Shown: positions 3,017-56,185 of the stretch, piece after piece
Layout: each line of letters opens with the position of its first letter
How positions within the stretch are numbered: position 1 is the stretch's first letter
NCBI RefSeq assembly: GCF_035299245.1
Contig: NZ_DATGWY010000019.1
Span: 42,363 to 106,362, forward strand
Origin: Flavobacterium sp.
GTDB taxonomy: Bacteria; Bacteroidota; Bacteroidia; Flavobacteriales; Flavobacteriaceae
Direction: 5' to 3'
DNA: 64,000 bases
The notes under the pieces: model-generated
What the model was told of the DNA's origin: nothing
The model's database searches: none
The model's input: the letters and a program-made list of their open reading frames with translations, nothing else
Position numbers and translations under genes: made by a program

Positions 3017-4345
3017 ATGGAAAACAAAAAAAGAGTAGCCTTCTATACTTTAGGCTGTAAATTGAATTTCTCCGAAACTTCTACTATCGCGAGAAATTTT
3101 CAAGATGAAGGTTTTGATCGTGTTGACTTTGAAGAAGTGGCCGACATCTACGTTATCAATACCTGTTCGGTTACCGAAAATGCTGATAAACAATTCAAAC
3201 AAGTAGTAAAAAAAGCGCTCAAGCTAAACGATAAGGCTTTTGTTGCCGCAGTGGGTTGCTATGCTCAGTTAAAGCCTGAAGAATTAGCAGCTGTAGATGG
3301 CGTTGACTTAGTTTTAGGTGCTACCGAAAAATTCAAAATCACCGATTACATCAACGATTTGTCCAAAAATGATTTGGGTGAAGTACATTCCTGCGAAATT
3401 GAAGAAGCCGATTTTTACGTTGGAAGTTATTCCATTGGAGACCGAACGAGAGCGTTTTTAAAAGTACAAGATGGTTGTGATTATAAATGTACGTATTGTA
3501 CAATTCCTTTGGCACGCGGAATTTCACGCAGTGATGCGTTGGAGAATGTATTGAAAAATTCCTACGAAATTTCACAACAAGGAATTAAAGAAATTGTGCT
3601 CACCGGAGTAAATATAGGTGATTACGGTAAAGGTGAATTCGGAAATAAAAAGCACGAACATACTTTTCTCGATTTGGTGAAAGCCTTGGATGAGGTGGAA
3701 GGAATTGAACGTCTTCGAATTTCGTCAATTGAACCCAATTTGTTGAAAAACGAAACCATTGAATTTGTGGCTCAAAGCCGCACTTTTGTTCCGCATTTTC
3801 ATATTCCGTTGCAAAGTGGAAGCAATGAAATTTTAGGAAAAATGAAACGTCGTTACCAACGCGAATTGTATTCGGATCGAATTGCTAAAATTCGTGAAGT
3901 AATGCCTCATGCCTGCATTGGTGTCGATGTGATTGTCGGTTTTCCTGGTGAAAGCGATGAACATTTCTTAGAAACGTATCATTTTTTAAATGAATTGGAT
4001 ATTTCGTATCTGCACGTTTTTACCTATTCTGAAAGAGACAATACAGAAGCGGCTGAAATGAGTGATGTTGTGCCGATGAATGTACGATCAAAGCGAAGTA
4101 AAATGTTGCGCGGACTTTCAGTAAAAAAACGCCGTGCTTTTTATGAAAGTCAAATTGGAACGAATAGAACTGTACTTTTTGAAGGTGAAAATAAAGAAGG
4201 TTACATCCACGGATTTACCGAAAACTATGTTAAAGTAAAAACACCATGGAACCCAGAATTGGTTAATACTTTACATGATATTCGTTTGACGCACATTGAT
4301 GAAGATGGAAGCGTTCGAATGGAGTTCATGAATGTTGAAGTATAA
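3017..4345 (+). CDS. mtaB: tRNA t6A methylthiotransferase MtaB (radical SAM)
   Basis: UPF0004 N-terminus TLGCKLN..E, radical SAM motif CDYKCTYC, EIVLTGVN and C-terminal TRAM region. Confidence 0.92.
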   Translation: MENKKRVAFYTLGCKLNFSETSTIARNFQDEGFDRVDFEEVADIYVINTCSVTENADKQFKQVVKKALKLNDKAFVAAVGCYAQLKPEELAAVDGVDLVLGATEKFKITDYINDLSKNDLGEVHSCEIEEADFYVGSYSIGDRTRAFLKVQDGCDYKCTYCTIPLARGISRSDALENVLKNSYEISQQGIKEIVLTGVNIGDYGKGEFGNKKHEHTFLDLVKALDEVEGIERLRISSIEPNLLKNETIEFVAQSRTFVPHFHIPLQSGSNEILGKMKRRYQRELYSDRIAKIREVMPHACIGVDVIVGFPGESDEHFLETYHFLNELDISYLHVFTYSERDNTEAAEMSDVVPMNVRSKRSKMLRGLSVKKRRAFYESQIGTNRTVLFEGENKEGYIHGFTENYVKVKTPWNPELVNTLHDIRLTHIDEDGSVRMEFMNVEV

Positions 4346-4348
4346 TAT

Positions 4349-4385
4349 AAACCCTGAAATAAAGACTATTTCAGGGTTTTTTATT
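4349..4385. terminator. Bidirectional intrinsic terminator
   Basis: ACCCTGAAAT-N7-ATTTCAGGGT stem with a T tract, between convergent genes. Confidence 0.8.
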
Positions 4386-4389
4386 AGGA

Positions 4390-5946
4390 TTAATTTACTG
4401 ATTCTACTAATCGAATGAATTCGGAACGATAACCGTCTTCATCATTGGATAATCCCGAGCGAGCTAATTTTTTGATTGCCTCAGAAGAAGTGTTCGAAAT
4501 CAATTTAGACTCTCTTAATGTAAGTCCAAACCAAGCTACTGCTGAGCTGAATCTAAAATCAGACGAACAACTGTTTAAAGCTACCGATTGGTCTTCAATC
4601 GTTTTAATCATTTCAATACTTTTCTCACCATTGGGTTTTTTATATCTGAATTTGATGGTGGCCAGTTCTTCATCATAATTGCTTTCGTCTAATTGTACTT
4701 TGGTGTATTTTAAATCGGAAGGAACAAAACTGCTTTCAACTCCAGTTGGGATTATTTCATACAAAGCAGTCACCGAATGGCCACTTCCTAATTCGCCCGC
4801 ATCGATTGCATCGTTTTTAAAATCTTCAGCATTGAGTTTTCGGTTTTCATAACCAATTAAACGATACGCTTGTACGTGTTTAGGGTTGAATTCAATTTGG
4901 ACTTTTACATCTTTGGCTATGGCAAACATCGAACCTTTGAATTCTTTTCCTAAAAACCGATTGGCTTCCTGGATGTTATCGATGTAAGCGTAATTTCCGT
5001 TTCCTTTATCGGCCAAAATTTCCATTTTGCTGTCTTTGTAATTGCCCATTCCAAATCCTAAAACGGTCAAAAACACACCCGATTTTCGTTTTTCTTCAAT
5101 CAAATCTTCCATTTCATTATCCGACGACATGCCTACGTTAAAATCACCGTCAGTTGCCAAAATCACGCGATTATTTCCTTCTTTGATGAAATTTTCTTCA
5201 GCAATTTTATAGGCCAATTCGATTCCTTCTCCGCCAGCAGTGCTTCCTCCAGCTTCCAGTTCGTCAAATGCATTGATGATGGCTTGTTTTTCACTTCCAG
5301 AAGTTGGCTCCAAAACTACACCAGCCGAACCCGCATAAACCACGATGCTTACTTTGTCTTTTGCTCTGAGTTCTTTCACCAAAACTTCCATGGATCTTTT
5401 TAATAAGGGCAATTTGTTTTCGTCGCTCATCGAACCTGAAACGTCAATTAAGAAAACCAAGTTGGAAGCGGGCAAATTGGATGTAGAAATGGTTTTTCCT
5501 TGCAACCCAATTTTAAGTAGTTTGTGATTGGAATTCCACGGACTTTCACTGTATTCAGTAGCGATGGAAAACGGATGTTCGTCGGTGGGTTGCGGATAAT
5601 TGTATTTAAAGAAATTTACCATCTCTTCAACACGAACTGCGTCTTTGGGTACTTTTTGTCCATTGTTGATGAATCGTCTAATGTTGGTGTACGAAGCATT
5701 ATCAACATCAATGGAAAAAGTAGAAAGTGGTGCTTTTGTAGGTGATTCAAAGGGGTTTTCAGTCCATTCAGCATAACTTTCAGTATTTTCATTAGCGGTA
5801 GTAACATCCTGAAAATCTTCAGGTAGTGCGGGTTCTTGTGCAGCATCAGTAATTATGCTTGTTTCGGATTCTATGTTTTCTGCGTTTTTGCAATGGGTCA
5901 AAAAAAGCAATAGGAATGCCGTTAAATAAAAAGGATACTTTTTCAT
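4390..5946 (-). CDS. vWA-domain lipoprotein (YfbK / DUF3520 type)
   Basis: Lipobox-like LLFLTHC; STFSIDVDNASY; MIDAS DVSGSM; ILATDGDFNVG; YRLIGYENR and DAGELG (DUF3520). Confidence 0.85.
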   Translation of the reverse strand: MKKYPFYLTAFLLLFLTHCKNAENIESETSIITDAAQEPALPEDFQDVTTANENTESYAEWTENPFESPTKAPLSTFSIDVDNASYTNIRRFINNGQKVPKDAVRVEEMVNFFKYNYPQPTDEHPFSIATEYSESPWNSNHKLLKIGLQGKTISTSNLPASNLVFLIDVSGSMSDENKLPLLKRSMEVLVKELRAKDKVSIVVYAGSAGVVLEPTSGSEKQAIINAFDELEAGGSTAGGEGIELAYKIAEENFIKEGNNRVILATDGDFNVGMSSDNEMEDLIEEKRKSGVFLTVLGFGMGNYKDSKMEILADKGNGNYAYIDNIQEANRFLGKEFKGSMFAIAKDVKVQIEFNPKHVQAYRLIGYENRKLNAEDFKNDAIDAGELGSGHSVTALYEIIPTGVESSFVPSDLKYTKVQLDESNYDEELATIKFRYKKPNGEKSIEMIKTIEDQSVALNSCSSDFRFSSAVAWFGLTLRESKLISNTSSEAIKKLARSGLSNDEDGYRSEFIRLVESVN

Positions 5947-50481: not shown

Positions 50482-51345
50482 ATGGAAAATATCAAAATCA
50501 TCGAATGTCCGCGCGATGCCATGCAAGGCATCAAACCGTTTATTCCCACCGAGCGTAAAGTCGACTATATTCAGGCGTTGCTCCGCGTAGGTTTTGATAC
50601 GATTGATTTTGGAAGTTTTGTTTCGCCCAAAGCGATTCCGCAAATGCAAGATACCGCTGAGGTATTAGCGCAACTCGATTTGTCGCAAACAACTAGTAAA
50701 TTACTTGCCATTATTGCCAATACGCAAGGCGCTGAAATGGCTTCGGTTCACAAGGAAATCAACTATTTGGGTTTTCCGTTTTCGATTTCGGAGAATTTCC
50801 AAATGCGTAATACGCACAAAACCATAGCCGAGAGTTTGGTGACGCTACAAGAAATTTTAAACATTGCAGATAAATCCAATAAAGAGGTTGTAACTTACAT
50901 TTCAATGGGTTTCGGAAATCCGTACGGCGATCCGTGGAATGTAGAAATAGTAGGCGAGTGGACTGAAAAATTGGCGCAAATGGGTGTGAAAATTCTCTCG
51001 CTTTCCGACACTGTTGGAAGCTCAACACCTGAAGTGATTGACTATTTGTTTTCCAATTTGATTCCGAAATACCCAAACATTGAATTTGGCGCGCATTTGC
51101 ACACTACACCCGAAAAATGGTTTGAAAAAATCGATGCCGCCTACAAAGCCGGTTGCCGACGCTACGATGGCGCGATTCAAGGTTTTGGTGGTTGCCCTAT
51201 GGCCAAAGACGATTTGACAGGCAACATGCCCACCGAAAAATTACTTTCCTATTTCACTACTGTGAAAGAAAATACGAATACAAGTCCGATGAGCTTTGAA
51301 AGCGCATACAATGTGGCTTCGCGGTTGTTTGGCGAGTTTCATTAA
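50482..51345 (+). CDS. Hydroxymethylglutaryl-CoA lyase
   Basis: ECPRDAMQG, SFVSPKAIPQM, LSDTVG, HLH, GGCP, GNMPTE. Confidence 0.92.
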   Translation: MENIKIIECPRDAMQGIKPFIPTERKVDYIQALLRVGFDTIDFGSFVSPKAIPQMQDTAEVLAQLDLSQTTSKLLAIIANTQGAEMASVHKEINYLGFPFSISENFQMRNTHKTIAESLVTLQEILNIADKSNKEVVTYISMGFGNPYGDPWNVEIVGEWTEKLAQMGVKILSLSDTVGSSTPEVIDYLFSNLIPKYPNIEFGAHLHTTPEKWFEKIDAAYKAGCRRYDGAIQGFGGCPMAKDDLTGNMPTEKLLSYFTTVKENTNTSPMSFESAYNVASRLFGEFH

Positions 51346-51596: not shown

Positions 51597-51612
51597 TTCA
51601 GAAAGCGGTCGG

Positions 51613-51743
51613 CAGAACGCAGAAGGCAGAAAGTGCAACTGAAATACAAAACGTCTAAACTAGCCCCGATTGAAGCGGCACGCAGTAAAGCGGAAAGCGG
51701 GACAAGGCGTTATTAGAACTTTTATACGTCTGCTTCAAATAAA
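51613..51743 (-). repeat. Direct repeat 1 flanking the P-type ATPase (contains element copy E, 51660-51702)
   Basis: Aligns with 54342-54480. Confidence 0.85.
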
Positions 51744-51752
51744 GAAATCTGA

Positions 51753-54254
51753 TTAAATCAGCTTTCTTCTTCTGAATACTTTATAAATCTCAATCCACAT
51801 TACTGATACAAACCCAACCAAAACACTCAATCCGACTTGCGTCCATGTAACCGAATCAAACAAAAAGAAAGTGCTGAAAACGGGTATAAAAAGCAATAAG
51901 GAAGTCATCAAAATGGTAATTCCAATGATGAGTGGAACTAGGTTGTTTTTGTACTGAATAGTAGTGAAAATAGAGTAATAAAACGAGCGATTGGCCAGTG
52001 TCAAAAAGATGTTGGATGCAATGAGTGCGATAAAGATTACGGTACGAGTGACGTTTTCCGAACAACCATCAGCCACACAATATTGATACACAAACAGTAA
52101 TCCTGCGGTAATTACTAAGCCTTGAATAATACTAATGGAAATTTCTTTTAAATTGAAAAAAGTAGTAGTCAGCGGTCGTGGTTGTTGCAGCATTAAATTG
52201 CGTTCCATGGGTTCGTTTTCGTAAATAATAGAGCAAGTCGGACCCATAATTATCTCAAAAAATATAATGTGAACGGGTGTAAAAATATTGGGATACATCC
52301 AACCCAAAGCCAACGGAATGAATACAATTAATATGATTGGAATGTGAATGGAAATGATGTACTGAATGGCTTTTTTTAAGTTGATGTAAATTTTTCTTCC
52401 CATGGCAATAGCGTCGGTCATTTTGGAAAAATCATCATCAATTAGGATTAAATTGGCGGCTTGTTTAGCGATTTCAGTTCCTTTTTTGCCCATGGCAATT
52501 CCGATGTGCGCCGATTTTAAAGCTGGACCATCATTGACTCCATCGCCTGTCATGGCTACAATTTGGTTGTTGGCTTTTAACGCCTGAATGATTTTTAGTT
52601 TGGCTTCGGGAAACATTCGGGTAAAAATGGCCGTTTCCATTACTTTCACTTTTAGCGTTGCTTCGTCCATGGCCATTAATTCGTCGCCATTTAAGACTTT
52701 GTCTGCCTCTTTAAATCCGACTTGTTTGGCAATAGTTGAGGTGGTTGCTGCATTGTCGCCCGTTACAATTTTCAGTTGAATTCCGGCTTTGTAAAACGTT
52801 TCAAAAACGTCTTGAATGTTGGCTTTCGGCGGATCGTAAAACGCGACCAATCCTTTAAAATGAAACTTCAATTCTTGTTGGGTTTTGGGGTAATCGTTGC
52901 CTGAAAATTCGGTAACACCAACACCTAAAACGCGATAACCTTCGTTGGCGATGGTTTCCATTGCGGTTACAATTTTCTTTTGATCGGCTTCCGATAAATG
53001 ACTTACTTCGATCAACGCTTCGGGTGCGCCTTTGGCAGCGATGATTCTTTTACCATTTTTATCTTCAAAAACGTGTGTCATCATCGGTGGTTTTCCGCTC
53101 AAAGGATATTCATGAATCAATTTAAAATTAGGTCGTTCATCAGTTGATTCTATATTGGTATACGCCTCATGAATGGCAATTTCCATGGCATCAAAAGGCG
53201 TAGGTTCGCTTGACCACATGGCCAAACTTAGTAGTTCTTCGGCTTCAGGGTTGAGTTTTTCGTTGGTATTGACAATGGCATCCGAAGTGAAAAGATACAA
53301 CTGCGCCAAACTCATTTTATTTTCGGTGATGGTTCCGGTTTTGTCGGTGCAGATTACCGTTGCACTTCCCAAGGTTTCTACGGTTTTGGTTTGTTTGGTG
53401 ATGATTCCCATCTTCATCAAACGCCACGCACCCAACGCCATGAAGGAAGCAAATGCCACCGGAATTTCTTCGGGAATAACACTCATGGCAATGGTTAGTG
53501 CTTTGAGTAAACTGTCTAAAACACTTTTCGAATTATAGTAATTTACTGCCCAAACGATGCCAAAAATGAGGATTCCAATAATGGACATTTTCTTGACAAA
53601 GTTGGTAATCTGGATTTGCAAAGGCGTTTTTTCTTCGGCAATTTCATTTAAACTTTTGCCTATTTTTCCGAGTTGCGTTTGGTTTCCGATAGCAGTAACT
53701 TCGCAAATTGCCATTCCTGTTGCCACAGTTGTTCCTTGAAAAACGATTTTATTTTCGGAATCCTCATTTTTAAAAACGGAAAGTGATTCGCCCGTTAATA
53801 TCGCTTCGTTTACTGAAAAATCGTGCGATTGTAAGATTGTAGCATCGGCGGGAACAAAACTTCCTTCTTCGATTTGAATGCAATCACCCAACACAATTTC
53901 TTCGCTTTGAATTTCGATTAGTTCACCATTTCGAATGACTTTACTTTTGGGTTGCGACATTTTTTTGAGCGCATCAATGGCATTACGACTGCGTGATTCC
54001 TGAAAAAGAGAGATTGCCGCTACCAAAAAAATTGCAAAAGTCATAAAGATACCATCACCCAAATCGCCCGAAATATAATAAATACTCGCTGCTGCCACCA
54101 ATAATAAAAACATAGGTTCTTTAACCATTTCGAGTAAAGAATTCAAAAAGTGATTCTTTTTTTGATGTTCTAACGAATTAGAACCTCCCGTTTTTCGAGA
54201 TGAAAGCACCTCTTGATGGGAAAGTCCGGTAATTGATGGTTTAAATTCGCTCAT
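51753..54254 (-). CDS. Cation-translocating P-type ATPase (P2-like)
   Basis: LTGES, TM4 VIPEEIP, DKTGTIT, KGAPE, TGD, TGDGVNDGPAL. Confidence 0.93.
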   Translation of the reverse strand: MSEFKPSITGLSHQEVLSSRKTGGSNSLEHQKKNHFLNSLLEMVKEPMFLLLVAAASIYYISGDLGDGIFMTFAIFLVAAISLFQESRSRNAIDALKKMSQPKSKVIRNGELIEIQSEEIVLGDCIQIEEGSFVPADATILQSHDFSVNEAILTGESLSVFKNEDSENKIVFQGTTVATGMAICEVTAIGNQTQLGKIGKSLNEIAEEKTPLQIQITNFVKKMSIIGILIFGIVWAVNYYNSKSVLDSLLKALTIAMSVIPEEIPVAFASFMALGAWRLMKMGIITKQTKTVETLGSATVICTDKTGTITENKMSLAQLYLFTSDAIVNTNEKLNPEAEELLSLAMWSSEPTPFDAMEIAIHEAYTNIESTDERPNFKLIHEYPLSGKPPMMTHVFEDKNGKRIIAAKGAPEALIEVSHLSEADQKKIVTAMETIANEGYRVLGVGVTEFSGNDYPKTQQELKFHFKGLVAFYDPPKANIQDVFETFYKAGIQLKIVTGDNAATTSTIAKQVGFKEADKVLNGDELMAMDEATLKVKVMETAIFTRMFPEAKLKIIQALKANNQIVAMTGDGVNDGPALKSAHIGIAMGKKGTEIAKQAANLILIDDDFSKMTDAIAMGRKIYINLKKAIQYIISIHIPIILIVFIPLALGWMYPNIFTPVHIIFFEIIMGPTCSIIYENEPMERNLMLQQPRPLTTTFFNLKEISISIIQGLVITAGLLFVYQYCVADGCSENVTRTVIFIALIASNIFLTLANRSFYYSIFTTIQYKNNLVPLIIGITILMTSLLLFIPVFSTFFLFDSVTWTQVGLSVLVGFVSVMWIEIYKVFRRRKLI

Positions 54255-54341
54255 AATGAAATTGTTGTGGTACTCTAAGGTAGTGATTTTTATTGGATTT
54301 ATGGGGAAATGATTGGGTTATTTTTGATAGTGTTCAGTGTT

Positions 54342-54480
54342 CAGAACGCAGAACACAGAAGGCAGAAAGTACTACTGAAATACAAAACGTCTAAACTAGC
54401 CCCGATTGGAGGAAGCACCGCGTGCGACGGAAAGCGGGACGAGGCGTTATTAGAATTACTAAATTGCTGCTTCAAATAAA
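54342..54480 (-). repeat. Direct repeat 2 flanking the P-type ATPase (contains element copy F, 54396-54439)
   Basis: Aligns with 51613-51743. Confidence 0.85.
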
Positions 54481-54553
54481 AAAAAAACCGTTTAATCAGC
54501 GTTTTGTGCAAGCAAATCCGTTTAATCCGCGTTCCAAAATGAGCCAAGTGAAT

Positions 54554-54600
54554 GAGATGCTTCGTTTCCCGAGAAGTCGGGACAAGCTCTCAGCATGACA
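54554..54600. repeat. REP-like unit GAGATGCTTCG...CTCAGCATGACA with nested TCCCGA/TCGGGA palindrome
   Basis: Read directly; related to the GAGATTGCTTCG..CGCAA units. Confidence 0.55.
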
Positions 54601-54632
54601 AGTTAGACGTTTAAAAATCGATGTCTAAAAAA

Positions 54633-54663
54633 ACTAATCACTAATCACTATTCACTAATCACT
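54633..54663. repeat. 7-nt tandem repeat (ACTAATC)
   Basis: About 4.5 units immediately upstream of the guaB -7 element TACATTTG (54672-54679). Confidence 0.75.
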
Positions 54664-54712
54664 TTTTTCACTACATTTGCATGCAATTTAACTACAACAA
54701 CTAAATTGCAAC

Positions 54713-56185
54713 ATGAAGGCACACATTTCTAAAATCGTTGGAGAAGGTCTTACTTACGACGATGTTCTGCTCATCCCAAATTACTCCGAAGTTTTACCGC
54801 GCGAAGTCAGTATTCAATCCAAATTTACACGTAACATTATGTTGAATGTTCCTATCGTTTCCGCTGCAATGGATACGGTAACCGAAAGTTCAATGGCGAT
54901 TGCTATGGCGCAAGAAGGTGGAATAGGCGTACTGCACAAAAACATGACCATCGAGCAACAAGCAGCCAAAGTGCGGAAAGTAAAACGTGCGGAAAGCGGT
55001 ATGATCATCGATCCGGTGACGCTTCCGTTAACCGCCACGGTGGGCGATGCGAAACAAGCGATGAAAGAGTTCAGTATCGGTGGAATTCCGGTAGTGGACG
55101 AAAACGGAACGTTAAAAGGAATTGTGACCAATCGTGATTTGCGTTTTGAAAAAGTCAATTCGCGCTCGATATTGGAAGTGATGACGTCTCAAAATTTAGT
55201 TACCGCTGCCGAAGGAACTACACTACAAGAAGCCGAAGGCATTTTACAAGAAAACAAAATTGAAAAATTGCCTGTTGTAGACAACAATTACAAATTAGTT
55301 GGTTTGATTACCTTTAGAGATATTACCAAATTAGCACAAAAACCAATTGCGAATAAAGATCGTTACGGTCGTTTAAGAGTAGCTGCTGCTTTGGGTGTAA
55401 CTGCCGATGCTTTGGAAAGAGCCACAGCTTTGGTCAATGCTGGAGTAGACGCAGTCATTATTGATACGGCGCACGGACACACGCAAGGCGTGGTAAAAGT
55501 GTTGAAAGAAGTAAAAGCGAAATTTCCTGATTTGGATGTAGTTGTTGGAAATATCGCTACGCCTGAAGCCGCTTTGTATTTAGTAGAAAATGGAGCTGAT
55601 GCGGTGAAAGTCGGTATTGGACCTGGTTCGATTTGTACTACACGTGTTGTGGCTGGAGTTGGTTTTCCACAGTTTTCTGCCGTATTGGAAGTCGCTGCTG
55701 CATTGCGTGGAAGTGGCGTTCCGGTGATTGCTGATGGTGGAATTCGATATACAGGCGATATCCCGAAAGCGATTGCTGCGGGTGCCGATAGTGTAATGTT
55801 GGGTTCATTGTTAGCCGGAACTAAAGAATCGCCAGGTGAAACCATCATTTTTGAAGGAAGAAAATTCAAATCGTACCGCGGAATGGGTTCGGTAGAAGCG
55901 ATGCAAGAAGGTTCGAAAGACCGTTATTTCCAAGATGTAGAAGACGATATTAAAAAATTAGTTCCAGAAGGAATTGTAGGTCGTGTTCCGTACAAAGGTG
56001 AATTGAACGAAAGTATGCAGCAATTCATTGGCGGTTTACGTGCCGGAATGGGTTATTGTGGTGCGAAAGACATTCCGACACTACAAGAAACAGGAAAGTT
56101 TGTTAGAATTACTACCAGTGGAATAGGCGAGAGTCATCCGCATAATGTGACGATTACTAAGGAAGCACCGAATTATTCAAGATAG
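54713..56185 (+). CDS. guaB: IMP dehydrogenase
   Basis: [12 protein letters not shown] pair, [39 protein letters not shown]. Confidence 0.98.

Follow-up and report, generated by a model that had tools for sequence, protein, structure and literature searches.

Paired Flavo-1 repeats beside a resident P-type ATPase gene in Flavobacterium: a dispersed intergenic family with probable exchange of patches between copies

Flavo-1 (RF01705) is classed by Rfam as a small RNA (sRNA) with covariation, and its original description gives only its taxonomy and nothing on its function (PMC2864571 and supplement). In the transcriptome of F. psychrophilum, Flavo-1 matches lie sense or antisense to transcripts, and many of them are untranscribed (PMC9723704). 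Other described systems that invite comparison are the repetitive extragenic palindromic (REP) sequences and bacterial interspersed mosaic elements (BIMEs) of enterobacteria and pseudomonads, the modular repeats and miniature inverted-repeat transposable elements (MITEs) represented by pneumococcal BOX and neisserial Correia elements, and composite transposons and gene cassettes. Here we describe two direct repeats, the left and the right repeat, which bracket a P-type cation ATPase gene in Flavobacterium sp. The sequence analysed, called the window, is a stretch of 64,000 nucleotides (nt) corresponding to contig C19:42363-106362 of a 3.53-Mb genome (G000), and coordinates are positions in the window unless a contig or a locus is named. 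Other G-codes denote Flavobacterium relatives, and L-codes denote fetched loci of relatives. The repeats are very probably members of a dispersed intergenic Flavobacterium family, built on the Flavo-1 core, which stand beside a resident ATPase gene and exchange sequence patches with each other.

The locus resembles each of these systems in part. With Flavo-1 as published it shares the conserved core, the restriction to Flavobacteria and close kin, and the multiple copies; unlike the published model, a 76-position RNA hairpin, the unit found here is about 130 nt long with conserved flanks and an A-run, is near-strictly intergenic and mosaic with a copy number of 1 to at least 92, and behaves as a DNA repeat family, not as a single-copy RNA gene. 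REP sequences and BIMEs are likewise short, hairpin-forming, extragenic, multi-copy and often clustered, and they too form head-to-head pairs and mosaics with other small motifs and are biased in orientation relative to genes, whereas the present unit is longer, has no near-identical copies and shows no link to a REP-associated tyrosine transposase (RAYT). Exchangeable or repeated modules, an intergenic position and presence or absence between close species are shared with the BOX and Correia elements and MITEs, but here terminal inverted repeats are missing and no partner transposase was identified. A composite transposon or gene cassette is similar in that a single gene is bracketed by direct repeats, but here the repeats are non-coding, the gene is older at the site and vertically inherited, and the unit occurs nowhere else.

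A first-pass annotation of the window had described direct repeats around the ATPase gene, with conserved flanks and differing internal loops, and this description was borne out. The two repeats were 83% identical over 137 nt (MAFFT, blastn). Repeat finding paired their first 64 nt, 51612-51675 and 54348-54411, at 94% identity and 51691-51747 with 54428-54484 at 84%; the longest identical stretch common to both copies was about 34 nt. By segment typing, the hairpin tips (21-22 nt) differed, the left one being of type A and the right one of type B. A 31-nt pattern taken from the 5′ flank had two matches in the window, against none in 100 shuffles. The two direct copies are 2.6 kb apart and enclose only the ATPase gene and its upstream region, as annotated: the open reading frames (ORFs) of at least 80 amino acids (aa) within 51613-54480 were only two, the ATPase itself and, nested in it on the opposite strand, an ORF of 121 aa. 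According to the ORFs and the Pfam matches at the locus, there is no transposase or integrase ORF between the repeats, and the neighbours are metabolic genes.

Both repeats, and a further copy on the minus strand, contain the Flavo-1 core (TAGCCCCGAT, a hairpin and GGAAAGCGGGA; match to Rfam RF01705). The gathering threshold of 42 bits was passed by the left repeat and the minus-strand copy, and the right repeat scored below it (Table 1). In the G000 genome we obtained 75 Flavo-1 matches at the Rfam level, two of them elsewhere in the window (Rfam search), and at least 86 copies with an iterated nucleotide profile built from the pair. Other family copies aligned to the pair over 105-117 nt at 76-82% identity, well outside the Rfam core, indicating that the extended flanks are a property of the family. 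In the full unit a 5′ flank precedes a hairpin whose tip varies, and after the hairpin come a 3′ flank with CTGCTTC at its end and an A-run; all four combinations of tip and flank types are present across the family, and the short hairpin tips of its members show compensatory differences. The copies are intergenic: coding sequence makes up 88% of the genome, and 85 of 86 copies avoid the long ORFs. In spacers between co-directional genes, antisense copies (44) outnumbered sense copies (12). Flavo-1 was present in 18 of the 18 genus genomes searched, in 3 of 12 other families of the order and in none of 14 control genomes, and the copy number per genome ran from 1-3 up to at least 92 across the genus. 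The best family pairs were 83-93% identical, and none exceeded about 93%, so that no recent burst is visible. Within the library that could be searched, no description of REP/RAYT systems or intergenic repeats in Flavobacterium was found.

Neither repeat contains a terminator-like site, and the single-strand folds of both copies were no more stable than those of shuffles (z about 0); a reading as terminators or stable structures was rejected accordingly. The possibility that tips A and B are mutual inversions was discarded after manual comparison, the two being reverse-complementary only in the central 6-mer. A target-site duplication was definable for neither copy, the outgroup spacers being too diverged.

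The position of the repeats on both sides of a gene is by itself not unusual. Among the 86 copies, 4 same-strand neighbour pairs within 5 kb were observed, against 4.9 expected under random placement, and the bracketing as such is therefore uninformative. Several observations nevertheless weigh against an ordinary dispersal of the family to these two spacers. The left and right repeats are each other's best match within the family (138 bits), and the other reciprocal-best pairs, of 135 and 124 bits, lie on different contigs. The 31-nt variant of the 5′ flank occurs in G000 solely at these two sites, with up to one mismatch allowed. When one genome from each of 185,579 species was searched, it was found in four others (G153, G092, G267 and G046) and only at this locus, with two matches each in G153 and G092, left and right of the ATPase; the related records bear the names Flavobacterium or Flavobacteriales. 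The two copies are thus specially related, beyond what a random sampling of the family would give; either one derives from the other, or they have been homogenised. A route of spread is also not apparent. No terminal inverted repeats bound either copy, and the MITE reading was rejected on that ground. The sole RAYT of G000 (C20:29693-30298, or L140:1183-1788, minus strand; NF047646, 108 bits) stands between inverted copies of an unrelated palindrome (GCGCAAAGTC...), of which the genome has only 4, and the 1.5 kb on either side of the gene are free of Flavo-1 matches; on present evidence the RAYT was rejected as mobiliser of the family. The RAYT and its 4-copy palindrome perhaps represent a REP/RAYT system that is nearly extinct or newly arrived. 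Finally, the relative G046 has a solitary repeat and no ATPase, as described below.

The surroundings of the ATPase were compared through protein searches of 40 relatives, a search of 250 genus genomes at the DNA level, fetched loci and 80 metagenome loci of the lyase. The order lyase, ATPase, guaB, in the same orientation, was found without the flanking pair in 19 other species and in 11 of the 80 metagenome contigs. Compact, repeat-free spacers of 3-9 bp and 113-166 bp are found in G022, G004, G135, G061 and G076, and the 11 metagenome loci with the ATPase have the same compact arrangement. G023, G205, G137, G059, G093, G188, G214, G066, G249 and G244 show this gene order and no plus-strand pair, and in G006, G020, G013 and G005, also without the pair, the order is joined by two extra genes encoding a DUF5723 protein and a 183-aa protein. 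The plus-strand element was present, as pair or solo, in none of the 80 metagenome lyase loci, and a metagenome scan with the locus-specific 5′-flank pattern gave no matches. A maximum-likelihood tree of 22 ATPases recovered the same clades as the lyase and guaB tree, indicating that the ATPase has been inherited vertically with its neighbours. Wherever the contig allowed the check, an ATPase of more than 70% identity was always located between lyase and guaB, and the P-type ATPases at other sites were more distant (30-63% identical).

In the ATPase tree the pair-bearing genomes formed one clade, ((G000,G267),(G153,G092)), with 100/100 support. A single origin of the pair follows, in the four species' common ancestor and next to a gene already present. 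The closest relative of G000 is G267, with 95.7% identity in the ATPase protein and 98% in guaB, and over the four species the pair was kept without loss of the ATPase through about 10% divergence of the ATPase protein. The minus-strand Flavo-1 copy has orthologues in G023, G066, G214, G092, G153 and G267 and also in G046, G206 and G070, which have no ATPase; it is older than the plus-strand pair. With the left repeat it forms a head-to-head dimer, and a second such dimer occurs in G000 at C6:118631-118965.

The orthologous copies of the four species differ patchwise. In G000 the left repeat combines tip A with flank alpha and the right one tip B with flank beta; the corresponding combinations are A-alpha and A-beta in G267, B-beta and A-alpha in G092, and a long tip with alpha and a long tip with beta in G153. 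Between G000 and G267 the right spacers agree at about 92% (mean column identity, with indels counted); they are set apart by a clean replacement of the 22-nt tip (B versus A) between perfectly conserved flanks, by three heptamer units and by a second replaced hairpin in the tail module that follows the right repeat. In G092, tip, 3′ flank and tail are exchanged between left and right relative to G000, G267 and G153. In G153 an insert of about 130 nt is nested at one and the same position in both copies, the two inserts being 83% identical, and it was found nowhere else in the G153 assembly. G267 has a related nested module at the left only and, between the left element and the ATPase stop, four tail units (about 100 nt each) in tandem; a partial tail unit stands behind the left repeat of G092. 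The left side of G000 is without those tails, and its junction shares a 7-nt match, AATCAGC, with the end of the ATPase gene, which suggests that the tails may have been lost by a microhomology deletion. We take these comparisons to mean that the two copies do recombine, trading short patches time and again and possibly doing so with further family members as well, and that gene conversion is the likely mechanism in most cases. For the swap in G092, a double crossover (which amounts to excision and re-integration) or a pair of separate conversions would be needed, and deletion of the ATPase by a crossover between the copies is possible.

The nested module of about 130 nt (L035 of G153, about 1210-1330 and 4280-4400; L057 of G267) sits in the leader of the plus-strand element and has an internal inverted repeat and a possible target duplication of 9-10 nt (AGAAAGTGCA / AGGAAGTGCT). 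Its two copies in G153 differ by compensatory stem changes.

Sites without the ATPase were examined among the same relatives. The lyase gene directly adjoins guaB in G014, G021, G018, G024, G131, G070 and G206 and in about twenty metagenome contigs, and these empty sites require 7 independent changes on the tree, in keeping with an ATPase that is dispensable and often lost in the genus. No plus-strand element was found at these seven genome sites, and loss therefore does not depend on the repeats. As a separate observation, the ATPase orthologue of G023 (C3:445880-448363) has one in-frame TGA and may be a pseudogene, which fits repeated loss in the genus. Thus, the suggestion of the first-pass annotation that the copies can recombine agrees with the patch replacements and the left-right swap in the four species, and these lend indirect support to a possible loss of the gene by this route, although loss in the genus does not depend on the repeats. 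An absence of empty sites, which that annotation would have counted against capture, was not found, since such sites are frequent and of several origins, but all except that of G046 are without the plus-strand repeat.

The arrangement predicted there, a single repeat between lyase and guaB without the ATPase, does exist in G046, where lyase is followed by the minus-strand Flavo-1 copy and heptamers, then by a single plus-strand element, a CTGAACA array like that of the G153 right spacer, and finally guaB. The solo element (102 bits) has a type-B tip and an alpha-like 3′ flank, and it has no right-hand counterpart. However, G046 groups with G059 and G093 (100/99 support), both of which have the ATPase and are without the pair, and the identities of CarB and GuaA likewise put it outside the pair-bearing clade. 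Over the first 150-225 nt of guaB, sliding-window identity was 89-90% to G092 and G153 versus 85-87% to the sister species, a weak hint that the spacer and the guaB 5′ end of G046 may have come from the G092/G153 lineage; the same analysis showed no signal of an imported spacer on the lyase side and only a weak one at the guaB 5′ end. The solo site is compatible with a deletion by crossover between the copies, with recombination of heptamer arrays, and with an independent insertion beside the minus-strand copy.

On the reading that we favour, family members beside a resident gene, the ATPase was long established between the HMG-CoA lyase-like gene and guaB before the repeats arrived, and one Flavo-1 copy entered each of the spacers flanking it in the common ancestor of the four species. 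Later, short patches were exchanged between the copies, likely by homologous recombination (gene conversion), alongside microsatellite slippage and the gain or loss of neighbouring repeat modules. The proposal of the first-pass annotation, that the ATPase was acquired or is mobile as a repeat-bounded unit like a cassette or a composite element, draws on the bracketing itself and on the locus-specific similarity of the copies and on nothing more, and we find it hardly credible. Gain of the gene through recombination between repeats and carriage of the gene together with a repeat are both contradicted by the ATPase in the same slot without the pair in the 19 species and 11 metagenome contigs and by the congruent trees, and bracketing by two same-strand copies is expected by chance. 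Vertical inheritance, the confinement of close ATPase homologues to this locus, and the lack of terminal inverted repeats and of a transposase or integrase ORF in the unit all point the same way, and with the stable synteny in relatives without the repeats gene capture is refuted.

Loss of the ATPase through the repeats is a different matter, because it is compatible with the favoured origin of the repeats and only adds a functional consequence. A crossover would delete the ATPase and leave one hybrid copy, G046 would be such a product, and the swap in G092 would reflect excision and re-integration. The solo structure in G046, with its type-B tip and alpha-like 3′ flank, has the expected form; the identical stretch of about 34 nt and the patch exchange between copies, the slight shift of the G046 guaB start towards G092 and G153 as a weak hint of an imported spacer, and the dispensability of the ATPase, seen in the 7 changes on the tree and the in-frame stop in G023, are in its favour. 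However, G046 sits with ATPase-bearing species that have no pair, all four pair-bearing species have retained the ATPase despite the divergence of their proteins, the element is absent from the seven other genome empty sites and from the 80 metagenome loci, and heptamer-array recombination or an independent insertion by the minus-strand copy would yield the same structure. We consider this reading possible but rather unlikely. A role of the copies as functional RNAs or cis elements, regulating the ATPase and guaB or insulating them and maintained by selection on either side of the gene, would account for the Rfam class with covariation (PMC2864571), the conservation of the pair in four species, the orientation bias of the family relative to neighbouring genes and the compensatory differences in short hairpin tips. 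It agrees poorly with the location of the right copy between predicted divergent promoters, where it may not be transcribed, with folds no more stable than shuffles, with orthologous copies that tolerate wholesale tip replacement and nested insertions, with the many untranscribed F. psychrophilum matches, sense or antisense (PMC9723704), and with the expression of the same genes in most relatives without these copies, and we judge it very improbable. A broader form of the recombination argument, in which Flavo-1 is a BIME-like mosaic DNA repeat system and not an RNA gene, short-patch recombination shuffles hairpin tips and flanks among its copies, and adjacent direct copies recombine so frequently that the intervening gene passes through excised-circle or double-crossover states (the swap in G092) and is occasionally deleted (the solo site in G046), is in our view unlikely.

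The features of the locus, in the gene order HSP20, pyrD, HMG-CoA lyase-like gene, ATPase, guaB and purB, are collected in Table 1. The best NCBIfam match of the ATPase was a PMR1-type Ca ATPase, under the equivalog cut-off.

Table 1. Coordinates of genes, repeats and signals at the ATPase locus of G000 (positions in the window)
Feature	Position	Strand	Remarks
HMG-CoA lyase-like gene	50482-51345	+	Left anchor; Pfam HMGL-like and NCBIfam PRK05692; synteny kept in nearly all relatives
Third Flavo-1 copy, long loop	51456-51598	-	Head to head with left repeat; RF01705 49.3 bits, over gathering score
Heptamer-like leader, GCAGAAC / GCAGAAG units	51599-51634	+	Precedes left repeat; unit number and sequence vary among species
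Left repeat, extended Flavo-1, type-A hairpin tip, alpha 3′ flank	51612-51747	+	Rfam core 51658-51708; RF01705 44.3 bits; family profile 131.6 bits
P-type cation ATPase, type II/III-like, 833 aa	51753-54254	-	Pfam E1-E2_ATPase, Cation_ATPase_N/C, Hydrolase
Candidate -7 promoter box of ATPase, TACCTTAG	54275-54282	-	Fits 5 of 6 specified positions of Bacteroidetes TAnnTTTG
Heptamer microsatellite, TCAGTGT / GCAGAAC units	54326-54369	+	Precedes right repeat; closest relative G267 has 3 more units
Right repeat, extended Flavo-1, type-B hairpin tip, beta 3′ flank	54348-54484	+	Rfam core 54394-54445; RF01705 27.7 bits, E = 0.01; family profile 137.8 bits
Tail module, itself a repeat unit	54485-54612 (about 125 nt)	+	3′ of right repeat
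Heptamer array, CTAATCA units	54627-54656	+	Directly upstream of guaB promoter; CTTCCAA or CTGAACA there in other species
guaB -7 box and conserved leader hairpin	54672-54712	+	Block invariant in all relatives
guaB (IMP dehydrogenase)	54713-56185	+	Right anchor; Pfam IMPDH and CBS; syntenic in relatives

The -7 box of Bacteroidetes promoters has the consensus TAnnTTTG. A promoter box of the ATPase, annotated earlier at about 54282-54289, is present on the minus strand a few bases from that place, and this candidate box is kept in relatives both with and without the repeats, which marks it as part of the old, predicted promoter region of the ATPase. The guaB leader contains a perfect 9-nt inverted repeat (54682-54690 / 54702-54710), and the -7 box with the leader hairpin (TGCAATTTA ... 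TAAATTGCA) around AACTACAAC is near-invariant across the genus, whatever stands upstream. This block is similar to the CAACACAAC leader motif.

The minus-strand Flavo-1 copy, the heptamer microsatellites before both repeats and the tail module after the right repeat had not been mentioned in the first-pass annotation. Heptamers precede each plus-strand element, and others adjoin the guaB promoter, with units of CTAATCA in G000, CTTCCAA in G092, G214 and G059, and CTGAACA in G153 and G046; their copy number varies even between the closest relatives. Possible roles of such arrays are those of promoter elements, for spacing or phase variation, and of substrates for recombination. The tail unit holds two AATC(A/C)GCGTT motifs and a small hairpin, its stem-loop is replaced between species, and fragments of the unit are found about 14-30 times across the G000 genome.

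Throughout the genus, the spacer between lyase and guaB is a hot spot of accessory gene content. In other species the slot holds the 183-aa protein, which has no Pfam match, and the DUF5723 protein (465 aa), with or without the ATPase, and in G023 and G205 genes for a DUF3307 protein and a LuxR/SatD-like protein lie between the ATPase and guaB. In the empty spacer of G131 an unrelated short repeat, about 30-40 nt long (GTCAGTCTGAGCTTGTCGAAGACC...), is present four times, so that different small repeat families have colonised one spacer in different species.

Taken as a whole, the element is a well-documented new instance of a known dispersed intergenic repeat, Flavo-1, beside an ordinary accessory transporter gene, and no new gene-capture mechanism follows. 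The picture of a gene between two repeats is that of a high-copy intergenic family beside an old resident, and chance alone predicts several such brackets per genome. If the BIME-like mosaic reading were true, the repeats would drive frequent presence/absence polymorphism at such loci. Flavo-1 has been in Rfam since 2010 with no known function, and it can now be described more fully, as a unit of about 130 nt that is orientation-biased and mosaic and varies about a hundredfold in copy number within the genus. The series of orthologous pairs in four species offers a convenient natural record of how short repeats at a distance of 2.6 kb recombine ectopically.

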